Assembly (NCBI GenBank): GCA_002773985.1
Contig: PEZW01000018.1
Location: forward strand, 34,240 to 98,239
Reading direction: 5' to 3'
DNA from: Candidatus Berkelbacteria bacterium CG10_big_fil_rev_8_21_14_0_10_43_13
GTDB lineage: Bacteria; Patescibacteriota; UBA1384; XYA2-FULL-43-10; 1-14-0-10-43-13
Length of the DNA: 64,000 nt
The notes beneath the pieces were generated by a model. The model was not told where the DNA came from. It saw only the letters and a list, made by a program, of their open reading frames with translations, and searched no databases. This document shows, piece by piece, positions 5,832 through 63,720 of this stretch. The translations under genes were made by a program, and so were the position numbers. How positions within the stretch are numbered: the first letter of the stretch is position 1; each line of letters begins with the position of its first letter.

Positions 5832-5864
5832 AAAAAAACGGCTTACACCGTTTAATTTTGGTGG
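5832..5864. terminator. Bidirectional intrinsic terminator (AAACGG-cttaca-CCGTTT flanked by an A-run and a T-run) carrying a tRNA-CCA-end remnant (TGGTGG). Left copy of a 32-bp direct repeat.
   Basis: Hairpin 5836-5853 with a T-run after it and an A-run before it. The 32 nt at 5833-5864 are identical to 10322-10353. Confidence 0.55.
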
Positions 5865-7467: not shown

Positions 7468-9012
7468 ATGCTCACCAAAAGACAAAAACAAACACTTGAG
7501 TTTATCAAGTCATACATCAAAAAAAATGATTTTGCTCCCTCCCTCGAAGAAATAAAAGCCCATTTAAAACTCTCGTCGGTCTCCACCGCACATCATCATG
7601 TTAAGGCTCTTGAAGATCAAGGCTATTTAAGAAAAGAAGATAATGTAGCTCGTGCCATTGATGTAGCTGAACCAGAACAAATGATTCAGATCCCAATAAT
7701 GGGTCTTATCGCGGCTGGTTTCCCTATCGAAGCTATTGAACAGCGAGAAACCATAGCAATACCAAAAACAAAATTACCAAAATCAGGTCAATTTTATGCA
7801 CTAAAAGTAGCTGGCAATAGTATGGTGGAAGAGAACATCAACGATGGAGACATCGTTGTAATAAAACAACAGGATCAGGTTGAAAATGGACAAAAAGCAG
7901 TCGCCTTGATAGACAATTCTGAGGTTACACTTAAAAAAATATATAAAGAGAAGTCATGTATTAGACTACAACCAGCAAACCATTTGGTGAAACCAATGTA
8001 TTATAATGCTGAAAGGGTTGCCATTCAAGGAATCTTGATTGATGTTGTTAGAAATACGCAAGAAGACTTTTCTGTTAATATTGATCTTAATAACACTTTA
8101 AACAATTCAGAATATATCCAACCGAATGCTATTATATGTGGGGATGCTTTGGATATGTTAAAAAAAATAAAACCAAACTCAATTGATTTAGTGCTTTCGG
8201 ATATACCTTATGGAATTTCACTAGATGAGTGGGATGTTCTTCATTCAAATACAAACTCGGCACTCTTAGGCCAATCTCCTGCCCAGATTGGAAAAAAAGC
8301 TTTTAAGAGGCGTGGCAAACCAATCAATGGGTGGTCAAGCGCTGACAAAAATATACCTCTTGAATACCAGCAGTGGTGCTACTCTTGGGGAAAAAAATTA
8401 TTTCCACTTGTTAAGGAGGGTGGTAGTGTTTTTATTTTTGGTGCTAGACGTACAATACATCGAGCTGTTATTGCACTAGAAGATAGCGGTTTTTTGGTAA
8501 GAGACGTACTGGCGTGGGAAAAACCAAACGCTCATCACCGAGCACAAAGTTTGAGTAAAATTTTTTATAACAGAGGATTATACGATGTCGGTGAAAAATG
8601 GGAAGGATGGAAACTAGGCAATTTAGCTCCGAAATATGAACCCATAGCCTGGCTTTTCAAACCATACAAGATTACAATTGCCGACAATGTGTTGAAAAAT
8701 AAACTTGGTGCTATGAATATTGAAGCATGTTTGATAGGTGGGAAATCCCCAACTAATATTTTAAGATATGGTTTCGATAAAAATGAGTCAGGGTTTCACG
8801 AGGCTCAGAAACCAGTGAAGCTATTAGAATACTTGATTAAACTCGTTACAATTAAAGGCCAAACTGTGCTGGATCCATTTATTGGCTCCGGGTCAACCCT
8901 AGTTGCAGCAAAACGATTAGACAGAAAATATATCGGCTTCGATAAATCAGATGAGTACTGTAAAATATCCAATCAACGAATAGATGAAGACAATCATGAT
9001 CCAGAGGTTTAA
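7468..9012 (+). CDS. LexA-like repressor (wHTH plus S24 autopeptidase) fused to a beta-class N6A/N4C DNA methyltransferase. This is the M subunit of a Type II R-M system.
   Basis: Residues 1-197 are a complete LexA paralog: DNA-binding domain, an IAAGFP Ala-Gly cleavage site, catalytic Ser in GNSM and catalytic Lys in TLKK. It is roughly 45% identical by eye to the canonical lexA at 57861. Residues 200-514 carry MTase motif IV (SDIPYG) before motif I (VLDPFIGSGSTLVAAKRLDRKYIGFD), the PF01555-like beta-class order. Confidence 0.75.
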   Translation: MLTKRQKQTLEFIKSYIKKNDFAPSLEEIKAHLKLSSVSTAHHHVKALEDQGYLRKEDNVARAIDVAEPEQMIQIPIMGLIAAGFPIEAIEQRETIAIPKTKLPKSGQFYALKVAGNSMVEENINDGDIVVIKQQDQVENGQKAVALIDNSEVTLKKIYKEKSCIRLQPANHLVKPMYYNAERVAIQGILIDVVRNTQEDFSVNIDLNNTLNNSEYIQPNAIICGDALDMLKKIKPNSIDLVLSDIPYGISLDEWDVLHSNTNSALLGQSPAQIGKKAFKRRGKPINGWSSADKNIPLEYQQWCYSWGKKLFPLVKEGGSVFIFGARRTIHRAVIALEDSGFLVRDVLAWEKPNAHHRAQSLSKIFYNRGLYDVGEKWEGWKLGNLAPKYEPIAWLFKPYKITIADNVLKNKLGAMNIEACLIGGKSPTNILRYGFDKNESGFHEAQKPVKLLEYLIKLVTIKGQTVLDPFIGSGSTLVAAKRLDRKYIGFDKSDEYCKISNQRIDEDNHDPEV

Positions 9013-10321: not shown

Positions 10322-10353
10322 AAAAAACGGCTTACACCGTTTAATTTTGGTGG
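10322..10353. terminator. Bidirectional intrinsic terminator plus the CCA end of the adjacent tRNA-like fragment. Right copy of the 32-bp direct repeat.
   Basis: Identical to 5833-5864. Hairpin AAACGG/CCGTTT with flanking A-run and T-run. Confidence 0.55.
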
Positions 10354-10414: not shown

Positions 10415-10491
10415 TGGTGGACCTGACCGGGCTTGAACCGGTGACCTCCTCGCTGCCAGCGAGGCGCTCTAGCCAACTGAGCTACAGGCCC
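10415..10491 (-). tRNA. tRNA-Ala (anticodon GGC), CCA encoded
   Basis: Hand-folded cloverleaf: acceptor GGGCCTG/CAGGTCC with the G3:U70 Ala identity pair, anticodon stem CCTCG/CGAGG, loop CUGGCAG, T arm ACCGG-TTCAAGC-CCGGT. Confidence 0.9.
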
Positions 10492-29219: not shown

Positions 29220-29245
29220 GTTATTTTCTGCTATTATTTGGTCAT

Positions 29246-29288
29246 GCCGAAGTGCCTGCCTGCCGGCAGGCAGGGCGGAATTGGTATA
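29246..29288 (+). pseudogene. 5' part of a second tRNA-Leu(CAA)-like gene (acceptor plus D arm), interrupted by a 20-bp perfect palindrome (29255-29274)
   Basis: With the palindrome removed, the sequence is GCCGAAGTGGCGGAATTGGTATA, against GCCGCGGTGGCGGAATTGGTATA in the intact tRNA-Leu (21/23 identical). Confidence 0.5.
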
Positions 29289-29299
29289 ACCTATTATAT

Positions 29300-29539
29300 A
29301 TGTATTTTGTCTATGTATTAAAAAGTACAAAAAGGAATTATCATTATATTGGTATTAGCAATAATTTATCTCGAAGAATAAATCAACACAACAAGGGTTA
29401 CAACAAAACAACTAAGCCTTACACACCTTTTAAATTAATTTACAGTGAAAAGTACCCTGACCGTGTCTCAGCCAGAACTAGAGAAAAACAATTAAAAAGT
29501 GGTTGCGGTCGTGAATTTATTCGAAAAATAGATATTTAA
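29300..29539 (+). CDS. GIY-YIG nuclease-domain protein (about 80 aa, UPF0213/Slx1-like)
   Basis: MYFVYVLKSTKRNYHYIGISNNLSRRINQHN matches the GIY-(10-11)-YIG motif plus the conserved Arg and Asn. The ORF-track upstream extension (from 29252) runs through the palindrome and is unlikely to be coding. Confidence 0.7.
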   Translation: MYFVYVLKSTKRNYHYIGISNNLSRRINQHNKGYNKTTKPYTPFKLIYSEKYPDRVSARTREKQLKSGCGREFIRKIDI

Positions 29540-29569
29540 ATAATTTGATTAGCGTCTTGTTCATTTTGG

Positions 29570-29655
29570 GCCGCGGTGGCGGAATTGGTATACGCGTACG
29601 ACTCAAAATCGTATTCCCTCAAGGAATGTGGGTTCGATTCCCACCCGCGGCACCA
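29570..29655 (+). tRNA. tRNA-Leu (anticodon CAA), long variable arm, CCA encoded
   Basis: Hand fold: acceptor GCCGCGG/CCGCGGC, anticodon stem TACGA/TCGTA with loop CUCAAAA, variable hairpin TTCC-CTCA-AGGAA, T arm GTGGG-TTCGATT-CCCAC. Confidence 0.9.
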
Positions 29656-29670
29656 AATGAATAAGAATCG

Positions 29671-29769
29671 CACGACCTGTCTGCCGACAGGCAGGCTCAA
29701 AATCGTGTGGCCTCGTGCCTTATGGGTCTGCCTGTCGGTAGACAGGTTCAAATCCCACCTTCGGTACCA
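29671..29769 (+). pseudogene. 3' part of the split tRNA-Leu(CAA)-like gene (anticodon arm, variable arm, T arm, acceptor 3', CCA), carrying two 20-bp palindrome insertions (29676-29695 and 29727-29746)
   Basis: With the palindromes removed, the sequence is CACGA-CTCAAAA-TCGTG ... TGGG-TTCAAAT-CCCA-CCTTCGGT-A-CCA. The acceptor 3' strand CTTCGGT is complementary to the 5' fragment GCCGAAG, including compensatory changes relative to the intact gene. Confidence 0.5.
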
Positions 29770-29770
29770 A

Positions 29771-29800
29771 AAAAAACAGCTTAATTGCTGTTTTTTATTT
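29771..29800 (+). terminator. Intrinsic terminator (AACAGC-ttaatt-GCTGTT followed by a T-run)
   Basis: Hairpin 29775-29792 followed by TTTTTTATTT. Confidence 0.6.
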
Positions 29801-29864
29801 ATCCAATTTTGTTGATGGGCGGAAGGTTTCTGGCACACGGCCCGAAACCTTCCGCCCCGACACT

Positions 29865-30230
29865 TCAGGGCGACTCCTTGTCGCCCTGCAACTTCTTTGT
29901 CTCCTTCGAGGCCTGTTGTTCCGCGACGATCTTCATTCGCGGGCTATCCTTCACAGCCTCAGCCTCCGCAGCCTGTTGCTCAGCAACGATCCGCATCCGC
30001 AGACTATCGCTGAGATCAGCCGCATTACTCTCCTCACCGGCACGTTGTTCGGCGACGACCTCCGCCGCCGACATGTTCGGCTCCGGATCGGGCCGAACCG
30101 ACTCGCTTGGCTGCACCGCCACAGACTGTGCAGGTTTGTAGCCGTAGTCGTCGACTTTGTGGCAACCGACGAGAATTGAAAACCCGAGGGATGCCACCAC
30201 AATTGCCAACACATCGGAAAACTCTTCCAC
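29865..30230 (-). CDS. Putative lipoprotein with internal repeats, GC-rich
   Basis: Signal peptide with lipobox (SILVGC) and a tandem R/K-M-R/K-IVAEQQA motif. The GC content is clearly above the local background. Confidence 0.5.
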   Translation of the reverse strand: MEEFSDVLAIVVASLGFSILVGCHKVDDYGYKPAQSVAVQPSESVRPDPEPNMSAAEVVAEQRAGEESNAADLSDSLRMRIVAEQQAAEAEAVKDSPRMKIVAEQQASKETKKLQGDKESP

Positions 30231-30296
30231 TGTATGACTCCCTTTCCCTTGACATGTTTATAACATTTTTGACTGTGTGTGTCAACATTTTTGGGA

Positions 30297-30490
30297 GTAA
30301 CTGCTCACCCATCTTTTCATTTCGACCCCGTGAGCTCTGTCGAACGGTCGGAGAAATCTGACACGAAGTGTCATTCCCTCGGCTAGCTCGGGACAGGCTC
30401 TGAGCTTGTCGAAGGATCTTTTCAAGAAACAAGATCTCTCCACCCTCGACGAACCGAGGAGTCGAGATGACAATATGAAGTGAGTTAGTA
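30297..30490. repeat. MITE-like palindromic element (GTAACTGCTCA terminal repeats, GTCATTCC subterminal)
   Basis: Begins GTAACTGCTCACCC and ends GTGAGTTAGTAATTAC. It shares its termini and the GTCATTCCCTCGGC core with the copies at 42539, 48641 and 50041. Confidence 0.4.
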
Positions 30491-30633
30491 ATTACTTTTC
30501 TCTGAGAACACAAAAAAAACCGGCATCCGAATGGACAACCGATTACATTATTTTCTTTTTAATTTTGCTGTGTCGGCGAGGGTCCCCCGAAGGGTACCCC
30601 CGCCGACGAGCTTTCATCACGACGCCACTCCTG

Positions 30634-31089
30634 TTATTTCTCCGCCGCCACGGGGCGGAGAGAGGCGGCCATCTCCTTGGCCGCTTCCTCCGCTGTCGGG
30701 ACCCTCTGCACCAGAGGTGACGAAGGGTCGACCGCCGAATCAACCGGCAACAGCAAGCTGTCACCGGAGGACAGCTGGCCGTTGCTCGACGACCGCCTGT
30801 TAATGCGGTCGAGCTCAGCCTCCCAGTGCCGCTTGTCAGCGCCTTTCGGCGCAAACAAAGTGGCGATCGAGTGATACGTGTCGCCGTCCTGGACGGCGTA
30901 GTACCATCGCGTCGGCTCAGCAACAGCGGCACGGACCGCTACCGCACGCCGATTGCCATCATCGACGGCGCGGGTGATGAACGCCGCCGCGATGGCAACG
31001 ATCACGATCACTAGTACCAGCCACGCCGCAACCTCTTTCAAGGTCATCGGCTCGGCCGGTCGATCAAACGCTTTCACGTTTTTGCCCAT
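30634..31089 (-). CDS. LysM-domain membrane protein (start probably MGKNVK; the ORF track extends to 31164), GC-rich
   Basis: TM helix (WLVLVIVIVAIAAAFI) followed by a LysM-like block YYAVQDGDTYHSIATLF...GQLSSGDSLLLP. Confidence 0.55.
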   Translation of the reverse strand: MGKNVKAFDRPAEPMTLKEVAAWLVLVIVIVAIAAAFITRAVDDGNRRAVAVRAAVAEPTRWYYAVQDGDTYHSIATLFAPKGADKRHWEAELDRINRRSSSNGQLSSGDSLLLPVDSAVDPSSPLVQRVPTAEEAAKEMAASLRPVAAEK

Positions 31090-31386
31090 CTTCAGGGCTC
31101 CTTTTTCGGGCAGGATTGGCAGAATTGCCAAAATTATACTAACAGATTTGATAGTATTTGTCAATATATAAGCACAAAATTATGTTCAATTTAGTATTTT
31201 GTCAGACCCAAACTGTATAAACACCGGAATTCGCGCCATTTTCTAGTCGAAAGCTTTAGTCTTTTAGCCATCTTTTCAGCTTTATCTCAGCCAATATGGT
31301 ATAATATCAACGTAGATCCAAGTTCACAGTACCGAGTACCGAGCGCCCCCTAATACGTTATACGAGATACCTAATACGAAATTTGT

Positions 31387-34149: not shown

Positions 34150-34300
34150 TTCTAGTCGCCCCGCTCACATCATCCTCCCCCGGTATGGGCGGGGCACTGA
34201 ACTGCTCACCACCTTCTTTGTCATCCTCGGGTTCAGCGGTGTGACTTGCTCCGCCTTGAGACTTAGGCGGGGCGAGAGAGTGAAGCCCGGGGATCTATAG
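34150..34300. repeat. MITE-like GC-rich palindromic element (same family as 42539-42779, opposite orientation)
   Basis: 34203-34265 is the near-exact reverse complement of 42700-42760. Confidence 0.5.
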
Positions 34301-34315
34301 GAGGTTTGGTCGCGA

Positions 34316-34891
34316 TTGTACTGTTTGAGTTTAAATAAAGTGATATTAAAGAAAGAGGTTATGGTGGACGAGGAAATGAAAGAGAAAAAAACAAACGAAT
34401 CTGAATATAATAAGATGAATCAGGAAAAAATGCACTACTATCGTCATCAGTATGGTCCGTTTGGAATGATTTTTGGTGTGCTAATTTTCTTGCTAATTCT
34501 CGGTGGTGTTTTTGCACTCGGCAGAGGATCAAGCCGACATTACGCTTATGGGAGTTTTGGTAAAATAGCGGGCACTGAAGCTAGCTATGGCGGCGGCGGA
34601 ATGATGAGGGGATATGGACGACATCGCGTGATTGATGGCGATGAGAACACCATCTCTGGTTATCGAAATAGAATTGCGGGACAGATTAGTACGGTCAATT
34701 CCGACAACATCGTCATAAAAGACACTGACGGCACCGCCTACACCGTCAAAATTGCCTCAGATACCTCAGTGGTTATTAACGGCAAGATCGACAAAGCCAG
34801 TAACCTTAAAGCCAGCAGTGAAGTCATCGTTGTCGGCGACTCAAACAGTGACGGCAGTATCAACGCAACAATCATCCGTAGTTTGCAATGA
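34316..34891 (+). CDS. Hypothetical membrane protein (N-terminal TM, Gly-rich linker, C-terminal beta-rich domain)
   Basis: ORF with a TM segment ([17 protein letters not shown]). No catalytic motifs. Confidence 0.45.
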
Positions 34892-35344: not shown

Positions 35345-35397
35345 GGTATCATTGCGAGCCAAGCCGATGTTCATCGGCTGGCGCGGCAATCTATCAC
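35345..35397. repeat. Short palindromic element GTCATTGCGAGCCAAGCCGATG-N-CATCGGCTGGCRCGGCAATC
   Basis: A near-identical copy occurs at 38810-38861, and a related start GTCATTGCGAGG at 36204. Confidence 0.45.
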
Positions 35398-35416
35398 AAT
35401 GTTAATAAAGTAGGCA

Positions 35417-36193
35417 ATGAAACAACAAATCACCGAAGAAGATCTCGTCAGGCTTTTTTCCTACCGGGACCGTGCTGAAAAACGACAAAGTGTACTTTTT
35501 AGTATATTTTACTATTTCATGTATTTCGCAATTTTTTCTGCGATAGTTTATTCTGTTATCAATTTCAATGCCGTCTCTTCGACAATCACTTATTGGTACA
35601 AAAGCAACTTTACGACGCAAACGACCGATGAAACACCTGTCGTTCAGATAAATGTGCCGAAAGTGCCAACTCTAGAGGAAGAAAAATACTCAACGCCGAA
35701 TGTCGCAGATAATCACATTGCGATTCCCGTATTGGATGTCAACGCACCAGTTACCTTTGGTGTCAACAATGTTTACAAAGAGGTTGAATCAAATTTAATC
35801 AATGGTGTTATTCAGATCAACGGCACCTCACTACCGGGACAAACCGGGAATATTTATATTACCGGTCATAGTTCCAATTACGTTTGGGTCAAAAGTGATT
35901 ATAACTCTATTTTTGCTCTACTTGATAAGCTCGTCATTGGCGACCAGATCTATATCAATTATAACGATGTTGTCTATGTTTATCAGGTTTTTGACACAAA
36001 AATTGTCGTGCCAAGTGACATTTCACTTTTAAAAGCTACAAATGATTCACGCCTGACCCTTGTAACTTGCTGGCCGGTCGGCACATCTCTAAAGCGCGTC
36101 GTCGTCCTGGCAAATCAAATTCATCCGGATCCCAAAAATAATACCAAGCCAGACACTCCGATCAATTTCCAGTCTTTGACTAGTGGACGATAA
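35417..36193 (+). CDS. Sortase family transpeptidase
   Basis: N-terminal TM helix, catalytic His (ITGHSSN), TLxTC motif (LTLVTCWP) and a conserved Arg downstream. Confidence 0.8.
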   Translation: MKQQITEEDLVRLFSYRDRAEKRQSVLFSIFYYFMYFAIFSAIVYSVINFNAVSSTITYWYKSNFTTQTTDETPVVQINVPKVPTLEEEKYSTPNVADNHIAIPVLDVNAPVTFGVNNVYKEVESNLINGVIQINGTSLPGQTGNIYITGHSSNYVWVKSDYNSIFALLDKLVIGDQIYINYNDVVYVYQVFDTKIVVPSDISLLKATNDSRLTLVTCWPVGTSLKRVVVLANQIHPDPKNNTKPDTPINFQSLTSGR

Positions 36194-36238
36194 AATTTTA
36201 CTTGTCATTGCGAGGATTAAGCCTGTAATTCGACTGTC

Positions 36239-38782: not shown

Positions 38783-38809
38783 ATGAATCTAGGCACCTAT
38801 CCGTCATTG

Positions 38810-38861
38810 CGAGCCAAGCCGATGAACATCGGCTGGCACGGCAATCTATGACTTTCGAAAT
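38810..38861. repeat. Second copy of the GTCATTGCGAGCCAAGCCGATG palindromic element
   Basis: Matches 35345-35397 with 2-3 mismatches. Confidence 0.45.
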
Positions 38862-38958
38862 GCAGAACTCAATTTATTAACATATTTTCCGATATATCAG
38901 ACAAGATGGAAATAAAATTTCTAAAATTTATGCAGAATTAATTTAAGAAGGTGGAGGA

Positions 38959-42538: not shown

Positions 42539-42779
42539 TATTGCAAACTGTAACTGCTCACTCGGCTGTCATTCCCGCCCCGTATCAGAGTACGGGATAA
42601 ACTCCGGCGGGTCATCGATTCTGAGGGATGAGCCCTCAGGCTCAGACTCGAATGAGAATCCAGGTGGCACAATCGCAACCGAACTTCCTGGATCCCCGGG
42701 CTTCACTCCCTCGCCCCGCCTAAGTCTCAAGGCGGGGCAAGTCACACCGCTGAAACCGAGGATGACAGAAAGGATGGAT
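42539..42779. repeat. MITE-like element (about 240 bp) with 11-bp perfect terminal inverted repeats GTAACTGCTCA/TGAGCAGTTAC and internal hairpins
   Basis: The terminal repeats are read directly. The interior shares GTCATTCCCGCC...GGATGACAG with the copies at 34150, 48641 and 50041. Confidence 0.55.
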
Positions 42780-42865
42780 GAGCAGTTACTGCAAATTGTC
42801 TTGTAACTTTACATTTATTACAATACAATAATAGCAAATAGTATAGAAAAAATAAATGAGGTTTT

Positions 42866-44170: not shown

Positions 44171-44258
44171 TTACCACTGTTGTGTAGTTGTCATGCTGAA
44201 CTCGTTTCAGCATCTCGGAATCAAGCCGCGGGATCCCGAAACGAGTTCGGGATGACAT
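44171..44258. repeat. MITE-like element (TTACCACTGTTGTGTA terminus, GTCATGCTG...GGGATGAC hairpin)
   Basis: Shares its 16-nt terminus with the copies at 59738 and 63705. Confidence 0.45.
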
Positions 44259-44377
44259 AAAAGATTTAATTGTACAACATTAGTATTTATTCTAATTTTC
44301 TAACAATAGAACATTGGGATTTTATTAGAAATTAAGTCAAAGACTCCCCTTTGGGGGAAATTAGAAATTTTATTAGC

Positions 44378-45385: not shown

Positions 45386-45487
45386 ATCATTCTACAAATT
45401 ACAAATTTAATACAAAAATACAAATATCGATAAACTGATTTGTATATTTGTAATCAGATTTGTAATATGTAGAGATTTGGAGCTATT

Positions 45488-48567: not shown

Positions 48568-48640
48568 TTTTTAGGCTACTTTGAGTTAAAGTATAATCAA
48601 TGTTAGTGGTCCTTCGGACCACTTCTTTTTTTCAGAAATG

Positions 48641-48776
48641 TAACTGCTCATTTGCAGTGTCATTCCCGCGCAGGCGGGAATCCAGGCAGCACAAACTTTT
48701 TATGGATCCCCGGGCACCACTCTCGAGAACACCGCTGGTCCCGAGGATGACAATGATAGGGTGAGTGAGTAGTTAC
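48641..48776. repeat. MITE-like element (TGTAACTGCTCA ... GAGTAGTTACA, with GTCATTCCCGCGCAGGCGGGAATCC hairpin)
   Basis: Same termini and core hairpin as the copy at 50041. Confidence 0.5.
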
Positions 48777-50040: not shown

Positions 50041-50165
50041 ATGTCTACTCGTATTATTCTGTCATTCCCGCGCAGGCGGGAATCCAGGCGAGTTGAATAA
50101 TTTCGAAAGCAAAGTATTGCAACCAAACTTCCTGGATCCCGGATCAGTGTCCGGGATGACAAAAA
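50041..50165. repeat. MITE-like element (GTCATTCCCGCGCAGGCGGGAATCC ... GTCCGGGATGAC)
   Basis: Its core hairpin is identical to the one at 48641. Confidence 0.5.
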
Positions 50166-50192
50166 CGCAATATTATTTTTTGAGGAACAAAA

Positions 50193-55293: not shown

Positions 55294-55383
55294 TTTTATT
55301 ACAAACAAACACACCACTCTAATAGATCTTTAAGTCTTTAAATCATTAAACACACTATTCTTTTCTATACTTCCGCTATTACT

Positions 55384-55426
55384 TTTTATCCTTTTGACTA
55401 ACGATCGTTGTATAAAAGGATAAAAA
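55384..55426. promoter_or_regulatory. 42-bp palindrome TTTTATCCTTTT-gactaaCGATCGttgtat-AAAAGGATAAAA (left copy)
   Basis: Outer 12-bp arms are perfect with an AACGATCGTT core. It lies 17 nt upstream of the 55443 ATG. Confidence 0.5.
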
Positions 55427-55442
55427 GTTTTAGAATTACATT

Positions 55443-56042
55443 ATGATCCAAAAAGAGACAAAAGAAATTATTAAATTAACTAGCAAGGAAATTTTACTTC
55501 TTTTTGCGGACGGGGTGGCATCTCTCGGATTTGCATTTACAAAATCCAAAAAAGACAAAAATGCTTTAGGAAAATATTTAGATGAACGATCCATCGATCG
55601 ATCAGATTTTTCACGAAAAATATATCGTCTCAAGCAACGCGGTTATATCCGAAAAATCGTTGAAAACAAGAGTGATTATATTGAGCTTACCGACTTAGGT
55701 AAAAATCGTGTAGAGATAAATTATTTAAATGAGCTGAAACCGAGAATTTCAGATCACTGGGACAAAAAATGGCGAATTATAATTTTTGACATTCCGGAAA
55801 AGTACCGCACAATCCGTGATGTCATCCGTTCAAAACTTTATGAACTTGGTTTTATCCAGGTTCAAAAAAGCGTGTTTGTATATCCGTTTGATTGCCATCA
55901 TGATATACAATTAATTTGTAAACATTATGGTGGATCAACCTATATTAAATATATGATCGCAGAAATTATTGAGGGGGAAGAAGAGTTCATAGAAATATTT
56001 ATTAATAATAACATACTAACTAAAGATATTTTATCCTTTTAA
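55443..56042 (+). CDS. wHTH plus Cas2-fold (PaaX-C-like) putative transcriptional regulator
   Basis: The C-terminal WRIIIFDIPEKYRTIRDVIRSKLYELGFIQVQKSVFVYPFD resembles the Cas2/PaaX_C fold, and the N-terminal region looks like a wHTH. No CRISPR array is present. Confidence 0.5.
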   Translation: MIQKETKEIIKLTSKEILLLFADGVASLGFAFTKSKKDKNALGKYLDERSIDRSDFSRKIYRLKQRGYIRKIVENKSDYIELTDLGKNRVEINYLNELKPRISDHWDKKWRIIIFDIPEKYRTIRDVIRSKLYELGFIQVQKSVFVYPFDCHHDIQLICKHYGGSTYIKYMIAEIIEGEEEFIEIFINNNILTKDILSF

Positions 56043-56070
56043 CTAACGATCGTTAGTTAAAAGGATAAAA
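56029..56070. promoter_or_regulatory. Perfect 42-bp palindrome TTTTATCCTTTTAACTAACGA/TCGTTAGTTAAAAGGATAAAA (right copy), overlapping the stop of the 55443 gene
   Basis: The left arm's reverse complement equals the right arm exactly. Confidence 0.55.
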
Positions 56071-56115
56071 ATAAAGTTGAATAGTAAAAATAGCCACAAT
56101 TTTTGCAGAATAATT

Positions 56116-59316: not shown

Positions 59317-59475
59317 ATCTTTCGCGACACCTGACTACCACAAATACATTTCTGGTTTGTTTGTGTTTAGATACTGAAAGTGGTGACGAATTTCTAATTT
59401 CTAATTTCCCCCAAAGGGGAGTCTTTGACTTAATTTCTAAACAAATTTTAAGGTTAAATTCCTAAATTTCACATT

Positions 59476-59736
59476 ATGGATCTGCTAATTTCAATATTTA
59501 GTTTCTACGACAAAACCCTCTCCGGACTGCCAGCAAATGCCCAGTTTTTTATCGCTTTATTGCTAATCGCCTTGATTTGCTGGTCTTTTTATTCTATTTT
59601 TGCTCATGGGCACTGGATTTTTATCATTATTTTTGTCATTCTATTCCCAGGTGCCTGGCCAGCCCTAAAATCAATCGGCGTTATTACTTGGGCAGCTCTT
59701 AAGTTTCTAATCGTCAGAATCCGCATCAATATATAA
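59476..59736 (+). CDS. Small hypothetical membrane protein (2-3 TM)
   Basis: Hydrophobic ORF downstream of a TCCCCCAAAGGGGAG palindrome. Confidence 0.35.
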   Translation: MDLLISIFSFYDKTLSGLPANAQFFIALLLIALICWSFYSIFAHGHWIFIIIFVILFPGAWPALKSIGVITWAALKFLIVRIRINI

Positions 59737-59737
59737 A

Positions 59738-59845
59738 TATTACCACTGTTGTGTAATTCGGATCGAAGTGTCATTCTGAGGTAACGAAGAACCTCTCTAG
59801 ATCCTTCGCTTCCAAACTACATCGGCTCAGGATGACAATTAGACA
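59738..59845. repeat. MITE-like element (ATTACCACTGTTGTGTAATTCGGATCGAAGTGTCATTCTGAGG ... CTCAGGATGACAATT)
   Basis: An inverted, near-identical copy lies at 63618-63720. Confidence 0.5.
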
Positions 59846-59969
59846 GCTCATGTAAATTTTATAAATTTTCTGGTTGCAAAAAAACAATGTCTTTGTCCTA
59901 CAGTGTGCCACCCAACATAAATAAGTGATCAATTTGTGTCAACTTTAATAACCAACCGAAAGGGTATAT

Positions 59970-63595: not shown

Positions 63596-63617
63596 ATAAA
63601 ATAATACTGGTGTTGCA

Positions 63618-63720
63618 CAATTGTCATCCTGAGCCGATGTAGTTTGGAGGCGAAGGATCTCAGAGATTCTTCGTTACCTCAGAATGACACTTCGATCAGA
63701 ATTACACAACAATGGTAAAT
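63618..63720. repeat. MITE-like element, inverted copy of 59738-59845
   Basis: Its reverse complement matches 59741-59840 with few mismatches. Confidence 0.5.

Follow-up and report, generated by a model that had tools for sequence, protein, structure and literature searches.

The window, by which is meant the whole 64-kb stretch of DNA that was analysed, contains three families of repeats (A, B and C) with different ends and one common hairpin module. Family A, which includes the focal repeat, very probably consists of non-coding MITEs that carry the ends and the 8-bp footprint of the ISBst12 group of the IS66 family. The elements of this family are about 99-280 bp long and are bounded by the terminal repeats GTAACTGCTCA...TGAGCAGTTAC and, in many complete elements from metagenomes, by perfect direct repeats of 8 bp of target DNA. 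Each of the three components, MITEs, the IS66/ISBst12 group and CGTC-REP/SRM hairpins, had been described before; their combination appears to be new. No report of IS66-type ends combined with CGTC-REP/SRM hairpins was found in the literature searched, which in itself does not prove that none exists.

Repeat families in the window

The 11-mer GTAACTGCTCA occurs four times in the 64 kb (30297 and 42550 and 48640 on the plus strand, 42779 on the minus strand), compared with approximately 0.03 occurrences expected, and all four lie at element ends. A comparison of the window with itself by BLAST recovers four pairs of copies, in agreement with the multi-copy nature assigned to the repeats in the preliminary description: 42669-42787 with 34200-34319 (inverted, 88% identity over 121 nt), 59740-59862 with 63596-63718 (inverted, 88% over 124 nt), 35349-35430 with 38804-38885 (77% over 82 nt), and 48658-48687 with 50060-50089 (30 of 30 positions identical). 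The repeats had been described as one abundant family with at least 11 copies in 64 kb. This is not what is found, as they fall into three families which have different ends and share a hairpin module. Both halves of the label "MITE/REP-like" are borne out, the first by the terminal inverted repeats, the 8-bp target duplications, the lack of coding sequence and the empty sites of family A, and the second by the sub-terminal GTCAT...ATGAC sequences, which are canonical CGTC-tagged REP hairpins.

The elements are listed in Table 1. Every copy is located between long ORFs, as had been noted, and family A is indeed without coding capacity. The strong self-complementarity reported for all copies is seen for the focal element, with a folding z-score relative to dinucleotide shuffles of -4.7 for 42550-42789, and for most of the others (-2.2 to -5.7), but the truncated copy reaches only -1.3 (34199-34295). 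Similarly, a GC content far above that of the genome is a property of some copies (0.54-0.59), but not of those at 44172, 59741 and 63605, which have 0.41-0.44 compared with 0.42 for the window.

The focal copy has the perfect 11-bp terminal repeats ascribed to it, but its span is 42550-42789 instead of 42539-42779. Its left hairpin unit starts with TGTC at 42567 and has a loop enlarged by nested hairpins, and its right, inverted unit ends with GACA at 42767. In the copy at 48640 the left unit (48658-48685) reads TGTC-ATTCCCGC-GCAG-GCGGGAAT-CCAG, and an identical unit is present at 50060. Since the 8-mers that flank the 48640 copy match at only 5/8 positions, this copy is regarded as an old insertion. 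The copy at 30297-30495 lies within a GC-rich island adjoining tRNA-Leu. The inverted element placed earlier at 34150-34300 is present, but only as a truncated half at 34199-34319, which, read in inverted orientation, is 88% identical to the right half of the copy at 42550; the remainder does not belong to it, and 34156-34196 is a hairpin of its own, unrelated to the element and conserved in a related genome from which the 34199 element is absent. For the copy assigned to 50041-50165 the pair of hairpins is confirmed, with units at 50060-50087 (plus strand) and 50132-50161 (minus strand) that have their tags outward and their CCAGG/CCTGG tails inward, but a usable terminal repeat is absent. 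The variant copy reported at 36204 amounts to a short fragment.

A second MITE is represented by family B, in which the ends differ and the hairpin doublet is of the same kind. Its 18-bp terminal repeat, TACCAnTGTTGTGTAATT (ends also given as TACCANTGTTGTRYAATT), is unlike that of family A. The copy at 44172 contains two perfect hairpin units, 44189-44217 on the plus strand and 44229-44257 on the minus strand. Identical 5-bp flanks are found for two of the three window copies, and for two of four examined when a further copy (L113) is included, in AT-rich DNA; a 5-bp target duplication is probable for this family. Family C and the doublet at 50059 are the same hairpins without transposon ends.

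Table 1. Location, ends and flanking sequences of the window repeats, and ends of the autonomous ISBst12-group elements compared with them.
Feature	Coordinates	Strand	Ends	Flanks or duplication	Remarks
Family A MITE, focal, full length, 240 bp	42550-42789	+	42550-42560 GTAACTGCTCA; 42779-42789 TGAGCAGTTAC		
Target duplication of focal copy	42542-42549 (left); 42790-42797 (right)	.		TGCAAACT; TGCAAATT	7/8 identical
Family A MITE, full length, 137 bp	48640-48776	+	GTAACTGCTCA; TGAGTAGTTAC		
Family A MITE, full length, 199 bp	30297-30495	+	right decayed, TTAGTAATTAC	8-mers match 4/8	
Family A MITE, truncated	34199-34319	-	one, GAACTGCTCA (10/11)		one hairpin unit
Hairpin doublet, family A-like interior	50059-50162	+	no usable terminal repeat		fold z = -5.3
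Family B MITE	44172-44285	+	18 bp, TACCACTGTTGTGTAGTT; TACTAATGTTGTACAATT	TTTAT on both sides	z = -5.7
Family B MITE	59741-59854	+	left TACCACTGTTGTGTAATT; right diverged	AATAT / AATTT	
Family B MITE	63605-63717	-		AATAA on both sides	inverted relative to 59741, 88% over 124 nt
Family C single hairpin, long stem	35349-35392	+			(TA)TC-ATTGC...GCAAT-CTA; z = -4.0
Family C single hairpin, CGTC tag	38802-38847	+			z = -3.8; two central loop bases swapped relative to 35349 copy (TT vs AA)
Family C-type unit remnant	36204-36214	+			11 nt, GTCATTGCGAG; no hairpin
ISGka4 (Geobacillus kaustophilus)			GTAWCTATTCAGCCC	GACGAGTT	
ISDge4			GTGACTACTCAGCA / GTAACTGCTCAGCA	GAAGAAAA	ends from PMC12898284
Bacillus thuringiensis element			GTAACTACTCAGCTT	5/8 match	
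Chlorohelix element			GTAACARTTCAG	AATTATTT	
Acaryochloris element			GTTACTGCCCAGGCT	CTTCATTC	
Leptolyngbya element			GTAACTACTCAGG	ATCAGCGG	

Family A insertions in other genomes and metagenomes

In the genome collection a strict pattern for the left end gives two matches. One of these (L007) lies inside a coding region and is due to chance; the other is the same composite in a gammaproteobacterial MAG of 62% GC (L008, 1020-1154), with flanks AAGGAGTG and TAGGAGTG. A scan of viral contigs likewise yields two matches, both by chance in coding DNA. With a looser left-end pattern 108 loci are obtained from metagenomes, ranging from 36 to 66% GC and constituting a sample ascertained by the left end. 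They reduce to 86 unique left junctions. The right terminal repeat, which was no part of the search pattern, is found in 63 of these, at a distance of 60-420 nt and with at most two mismatches, and an inverted GTCAT tag is located just inside it in 50 of the 63.

The sequences flanking these insertions show the footprint expected of the family. Among 61 scorable unique insertions the flanking 8-mers are identical at all eight positions in 34 and match at six or more positions in 50, whereas control flanks taken 8 nt further out match at six or more positions in only 1 of 60. Near-identical variants are present at 11, 7 and 6 distinct sites, pointing to recent bursts. In metagenomic contig L082 the left flank of one insertion is joined to the right flank of another. 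It is plausible from this contig that family A elements serve as recombination substrates, as had been proposed; an assembly chimera would explain L082 equally well.

Empty sites

The sites before insertion were examined on contig L139 of a related organism, which is syntenic with the window at 80-89% nucleotide identity. This contig lacks 42550-42789 together with one copy of the target duplication and contains the target stretch a single time; after removal of the element and one duplication copy from the window, the flanks and intergenic regions are collinear. The half-element at 34199 is absent as well, and homology breaks exactly at its terminal repeat, at 34199/34200. The copies at 48640 and 50059 are also missing from L139, where the spacers are otherwise unalignable. 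A second empty site is provided by L144, which lacks the copy present in L032, at TAACAAGC. The window copies of family A were inserted after the split from the related L139 species. The possibility that the 8-bp flanks represent a preferred, pre-existing target motif instead of duplications was considered, and the empty sites argue against it. Six contigs that contain the MurA of the window (L001-L006) belong to the same strain, being at least 99.96% identical without indels, and are uninformative on insertion polymorphism.

The family A copies of the window look old, because their target duplications (7/8, 5/8 and 4/8) and termini have decayed and a transposase is absent nearby. They are probably immobile now.

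These presence/absence differences between close relatives, accompanied by duplications, also bear on the function first attributed to the repeats, namely that they are likely terminators or RNA-stability elements. None of the elements is followed by a T-run, and a terminator scan lists none of them. The best intrinsic-terminator-like site in the 42-52 kb region is a separate hairpin with a T-run at 48605-48623, just upstream of the copy at 48640. The genes on either side of the focal copy are divergently oriented, and the copy is positioned immediately upstream of promoter-like hexamers for murA. A broader version of this explanation, in which the elements are maintained by host selection for an RNA role, as terminators, mRNA stabilisers or small RNAs, and have the look of a transposon and nothing more, can draw on the strong predicted folding, on the location of several copies downstream of genes and on the weak similarity, below threshold (E = 0.057), between 50041-50178 and WsnRNA46, an sRNA of Wolbachia. 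At the gathering score, however, Rfam assigns no family to the elements and finds only two tRNAs. With the missing T-runs, the genuine terminator beside one copy, the divergent genes around another and the insertional differences all against it, we regard an RNA function as the origin of these repeats as highly unlikely; individual copies may have been exapted secondarily.

Termini and the candidate transposase

A terminal repeat starting with GTAA and an 8-bp duplication are the hallmark of the IS66 family (PMC11946415). In the ISBst12 group of this family, ISDge4 from Deinococcus geothermalis has a single transposase of 449 residues, has been observed to transpose and generates 8-bp direct repeats (PMC12898284; PMC8369957). 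Its right end is identical to the family A terminal repeat, GTAACTGCTCA(GC), and the length of the target duplication is common to both. The ends of ISDge4 and five relatives were verified on plasmid copies, and are all GTAACTRCTCAG-like (GTTACTGCCCAG in Acaryochloris). ISDge4 itself was located by tblastn, no copy being present in the 250-300 kb region of pDGEO01. The 8-bp duplication is perfect in five of the six autonomous elements inspected, the exception being the B. thuringiensis copy (Table 1).

Compared with ISBst12-group insertion sequences, the window elements are small, at 115-280 bp, lack a transposase and have an interior unrelated to that of the IS. Hairpins were looked for in the six autonomous elements, and none has GTCAT hairpins inside its ends. 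It follows that the hairpin doublet is a core specific to the MITE and not a relic of a parent IS, and that the hairpins are not required by the transposase.

Neither the 64-kb window nor any of the 108 loci yielded an IS66-family transposase, and we therefore infer the partner of family A from the ends alone. The ISGka4 transposase, used as a phmmer query, has no match in the window or the loci translated in all six frames. Among the 25 commonest Pfam families listed for 91 large ORFs of the loci the IS66 domain does not occur, which is a weak negative result. Long pairs of terminal repeats with duplications, as would mark an autonomous partner, are found in none of the loci. ORFs with AAA_14/DUF4143 domains beside two of the copies were considered as a partner and proved to be ordinary paralogues.

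In the proposed mechanism, an ISBst12-group DDE transposase, encoded elsewhere in the genome or formerly present, would move family A in trans. The enzyme would recognise the 11-14-bp termini, GTAACTGCTCA(G/C), and cut the two target strands with an 8-bp stagger, from which the 8-bp duplication would result. The body of the element would not come from the parent IS but would be a head-out doublet of CGTC-tagged REP hairpins, retained by being recognised by an Ssn-type nuclease or by being otherwise of benefit to the element. To judge from the agreement of the ends, it is a transposase of this group that would actually have moved family A, and we hold the mechanism, with a transposase acting in trans on a CGTC-REP doublet core, to be very probable.

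The hairpin module

The module consists of an unpaired YGTC tag, an 8-bp stem (AT followed by six bases), a short or expanded loop and a CCA tail. In families A and B it occurs as an inverted pair whose tags point outward. Five perfect units are present in the window, and 62 in 57 unique family A elements. The latter have ten different, fully complementary stems, all of which start with AT; the changes in stem sequence with full complementarity retained indicate that pairing is conserved through compensatory changes. Of the 62 units, 60 have a YGTC tag and 50 a CCA tail. Loops of 4-5 nt occur in 31 of them, and the others have loops of 6-9 nt or much larger ones with nested hairpins (e.g. 42567-42664).

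Hairpins of this description have been reported twice under different names. CGTC-tagged REPs have a CGTC or TGTC tag, stems of 8-9 bp starting from AT, loops of 4-5 nt and a CCA tail, and include dRS3 of Neisseria; a dedicated transposase apparently is lacking, and no association with RAYT was seen (Di Nocera et al. 2013, PMC3733652). The NTS/Ssn-related motifs are a renaming of the same hairpin class in 2025, with the mode of multiplication left open (Chenal et al. 2025, PMC11893778). By its sequence, the module is the CGTC-tagged REP of the 2013 survey and the Ssn-related motif (NTS/dRS3 type) of the 2025 study. The published SRM pattern has three matches in the window, compared with a mean of 0.21 in 100 dinucleotide shuffles, and the other units miss the strict pattern. 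Tag, stem, tail and the arrangement in inverted dimers are as in the CGTC-tagged REPs (CGTC-1 to -4, including Neisseria dRS3 and Rickettsia RPE-4/-6), and the Neisseria NTS consensus differs from the unit at 48658-48685 in essentially the first base alone. There are also differences from the CGTC-tagged REPs. Many units of the window type have expanded loops with nested hairpins, and the dimers are boxed here by IS66-type ends, whereas the 2013 survey reported no transposase, terminal repeats or duplications.

Relation to Ssn nucleases

SsnA is a GIY-YIG single-stranded DNA nuclease of 94 residues, which binds NTS hairpins in single-stranded DNA, cuts a few bases 5' of the tag and affects transformation; its gene is flanked by such hairpins (PMC11893778). 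Genes for single-domain GIY-YIG proteins of approximately 95 residues, flanked on both sides by GTCAT hairpins, are present in related loci (L032, L144, L149-156 and L158), and at E <= 1e-10 the relatives of this protein family number more than 6,700. In L032 approximately 200 nt separate the gene from a family A copy. No support is found for ssn genes being carried inside family A terminal repeats, since L144, L149-156 and L158 have no such repeats and in L032 an orphan right end is all that is present.

The window contains a single GIY-YIG gene (29300-29539, Pfam E = 2e-17), with tRNA-Leu pieces and a CCTGCC...GGCAGG palindrome on its flanks. A role as the cognate Ssn is not supported for it, as it belongs to a different clade, whose members invariably lie within tRNA-Leu genes and have the CCTGCC...GGCAGG palindrome at their sides instead of GTCAT hairpins. 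No canonical ssn gene is found in the window. The Ssn system (Chenal et al. 2025) and the window have the hairpin class in common and differ in that the hairpin-flanked Ssn-like genes are in the related loci and not in the window. In single-stranded DNA, the hairpins would be bound or cleaved by an Ssn-type GIY-YIG nuclease encoded somewhere in this genome.

Alternative modes of spread

One alternative turns these observations into the driving force. The hairpins would then be decisive and the terminal repeats incidental, with spread depending on Ssn (GIY-YIG) as suspected for NTS-ssnA-NTS cassettes and with a host use in uptake or recombination of single-stranded DNA. In addition to the properties of SsnA and the Ssn-like genes between hairpins of the same kind, it would account for the conservation of GTC-AT...AT-CCA, against a background of variable spacers and loops, in hosts whose GC content ranges from 36 to 66%, and for doublets that lack terminal repeats (50059; a tandem duplication seen in L149 compared with L150). 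Left unexplained are the exact 8-bp duplications and the identity of the termini with those of the ISBst12 group; moreover, the window lacks a canonical ssn gene and the activity described for SsnA is cleavage, not transposition (PMC11893778). We consider this route improbable.

A further alternative is that the elements are REPINs, i.e. REP doublets moved as single-stranded hairpins by a RAYT, an HUH tyrosine transposase similar to those of IS200/IS605. Inverted tagged hairpins with a spacer that fold into one long hairpin are indeed what REPINs and BIMEs have in common with the repeats studied here, as are the intergenic location and the multi-copy nature, and the 50059 doublet and the family C units are without transposon ends. 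REPINs and BIMEs have a GTAG tag and an HUH transposase, unlike family A with its YGTC tag. Family A has 8-bp target duplications and 11-bp terminal inverted repeats, which to our knowledge are not features associated with IS200/IS605-type transposition, and we know of no terminal inverted repeats or target duplication in REPINs or BIMEs. Neither a RAYT nor another transposase domain was detected among approximately 17 window ORFs scanned with Pfam, and the survey that defined the CGTC REPs found no RAYT association (PMC3733652). Mobilisation by a RAYT therefore appears very improbable.

Transposition in trans by an ISBst12-group enzyme remains our preferred explanation, and it places family A beside the Correia elements of Neisseria and other bacterial MITEs, with which it shares size, terminal inverted repeats, target duplication, intergenic location and, on this view, mobilisation in trans. 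Correia elements duplicate TA and have 26-bp repeats. We know of no MITE that joins IS66-type ends to a REP doublet core.

Biological implications

The presence of the same hairpin core in two unrelated MITE families, A and B, suggests that the hairpins bring something to the mobile element. Just inside each terminal repeat, before the GTC tag, a variable spacer of 4-14 nt is found on both strands. The position cut by SsnA, a few nucleotides 5' of the GTC tag, falls in this spacer, so that Ssn cleavage could control excision, copy number or the fate of MITE DNA in transformation. It is possible, although we put it forward tentatively and with considerable doubt, that the hairpin doublet is more than passive cargo, that ISBst12-type MITEs are the vehicle, missing until now, by which CGTC-REP/Ssn hairpins spread within and between phyla, and that Ssn nucleases also act on the element.

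In practical terms, the elements probably break assemblies, and they probably mark recent insertions in groundwater and candidate-phyla genomes. Few bacterial repeats are as widespread as the CGTC-tagged REPs, to which dRS3/NTS of Neisseria and repeats of Wolbachia, Rickettsia and many alpha-proteobacteria belong. For at least one broad lineage, the doublets are packaged in IS66/ISBst12-type ends, on contigs of 36-66% GC, and this offers a concrete and testable route of dispersal.

Conserved hairpin and other intergenic sequences

The hairpin at window positions 34156-34196 (GCCCCGC...GCGGGGC) had been counted in the preliminary description as part of a repeat copy. This assignment is contradicted by L139, a syntenic contig of a related organism, in which the hairpin is retained with a compensatory change (GCCCCAC...GTGGGGC). 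Because of this conservation the element is regarded as a separate stem-loop, distinct from the repeat copy and possibly functional.

Several other structured or repeated sequences are present between the genes of the window. The long, GC-rich intergenic segment 57450-57635 is predicted to fold into a structured RNA (-78.5 kcal/mol, z = -3.2), and no Rfam match to it was obtained, even at E ≤ 1. A 65-nt inverted repeat pair (44305-44369 and 59396-59460, 88%) surrounds the palindrome CTCCCCTTTGGGGGA; both repeats lie in intergenic spacers, one shortly before mreB (44378) and the other shortly before an ORF at 59476, and the mreB site of L139 lacks approximately 22 nt that include this palindrome. 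The 32-nt sequence AAAAAACGGCTTACACCGTTTAATTTTGGTGG occurs as an exact duplicate at 5833-5864 and 10322-10353, the second copy being located ∼60 nt from tRNA-Ala (10415-10491). The AT-rich palindromic intergenic repeats at 45391-45473, 55376-55433 and 56029-56071 constitute a repeat family apart, and relatives of the first are present in four other loci (L033, L055, L111 and L113).

Directly after the tRNA-Leu locus lies a GC-rich island (29800-31165; 56-60% versus 42%), which is possibly an integrated foreign segment. It contains a single MITE of family A (the family with IS66-type ends) as well as minus-strand ORFs for which Pfam gave no match. On the plus strand, a 514-aa ORF (7468-9012) combines LexA DNA-binding, S24 peptidase and N6/N4 DNA methylase domains (Pfam), an unusual fusion.

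Rearrangement and expansion of repeats in other loci

Compared with L015 and L024, contig L082 combines flanks of two different family A insertions, the left flank coming from one and the right flank from the other; either two copies have recombined, or the assembly is chimeric across the repeat. Contig L032 (3140-3285) contains an orphan family A right end, consisting of ATGACA, a spacer and GTGAGCAGTTAC, flanked by AAGTTTGG and AAGTTTGA and located immediately downstream of an ssn-like gene (of the single-domain GIY-YIG type) that carries a frameshift. This right end is absent from L144. The loci encoding the identical Ssn-like protein P0219 differ in a tandem duplication of ∼140 nt, which is present in L149, L153 and L156, but not in L150, L151 and L152. 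The duplicated unit is a hairpin doublet downstream of the Ssn-like gene, and the duplication is a doublet expansion without transposon ends.

Palindromes and the tRNA-Leu locus

The ∼20-bp palindrome CCTGCCTRCCGGYAGGCAGG is found in L139 (1294), L023 (∼10372), L048 (∼1936) and the window (29255, 29676 and 29727). Two family A MITE copies contain it and otherwise match copies without it, and in L139 it has CTAATT repeats on both sides. The palindrome behaves like a tiny insertion in its own right.

A rearranged tRNA-Leu locus (29230-29770) houses a small GIY-YIG gene.

Organization of the rearranged tRNA-Leu locus, in locus order
Feature	Window position
5' tRNA-Leu fragment, split by palindrome CCTGCCTGCCGGCAGGCAGG	29243-29290
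GIY-YIG gene, 79 aa	29300-29539
tRNA-Leu(CAA), intact	29570-29655
Degenerate tRNA-like copy and two further palindromes	29675-29765

Among the homologue loci inspected (L095 4300-6100, L125-L138), the majority have an intact tRNA-Leu adjoining the GIY-YIG gene, and tRNA-Leu half-copies bearing the same palindrome as in the window are usually present. In L095 (4300-6100), the two copies of the gene abut tRNA-Cys and tRNA-Ser rather than tRNA-Leu. The gene looks like a mobile GIY-YIG cassette that targets tRNA-Leu.
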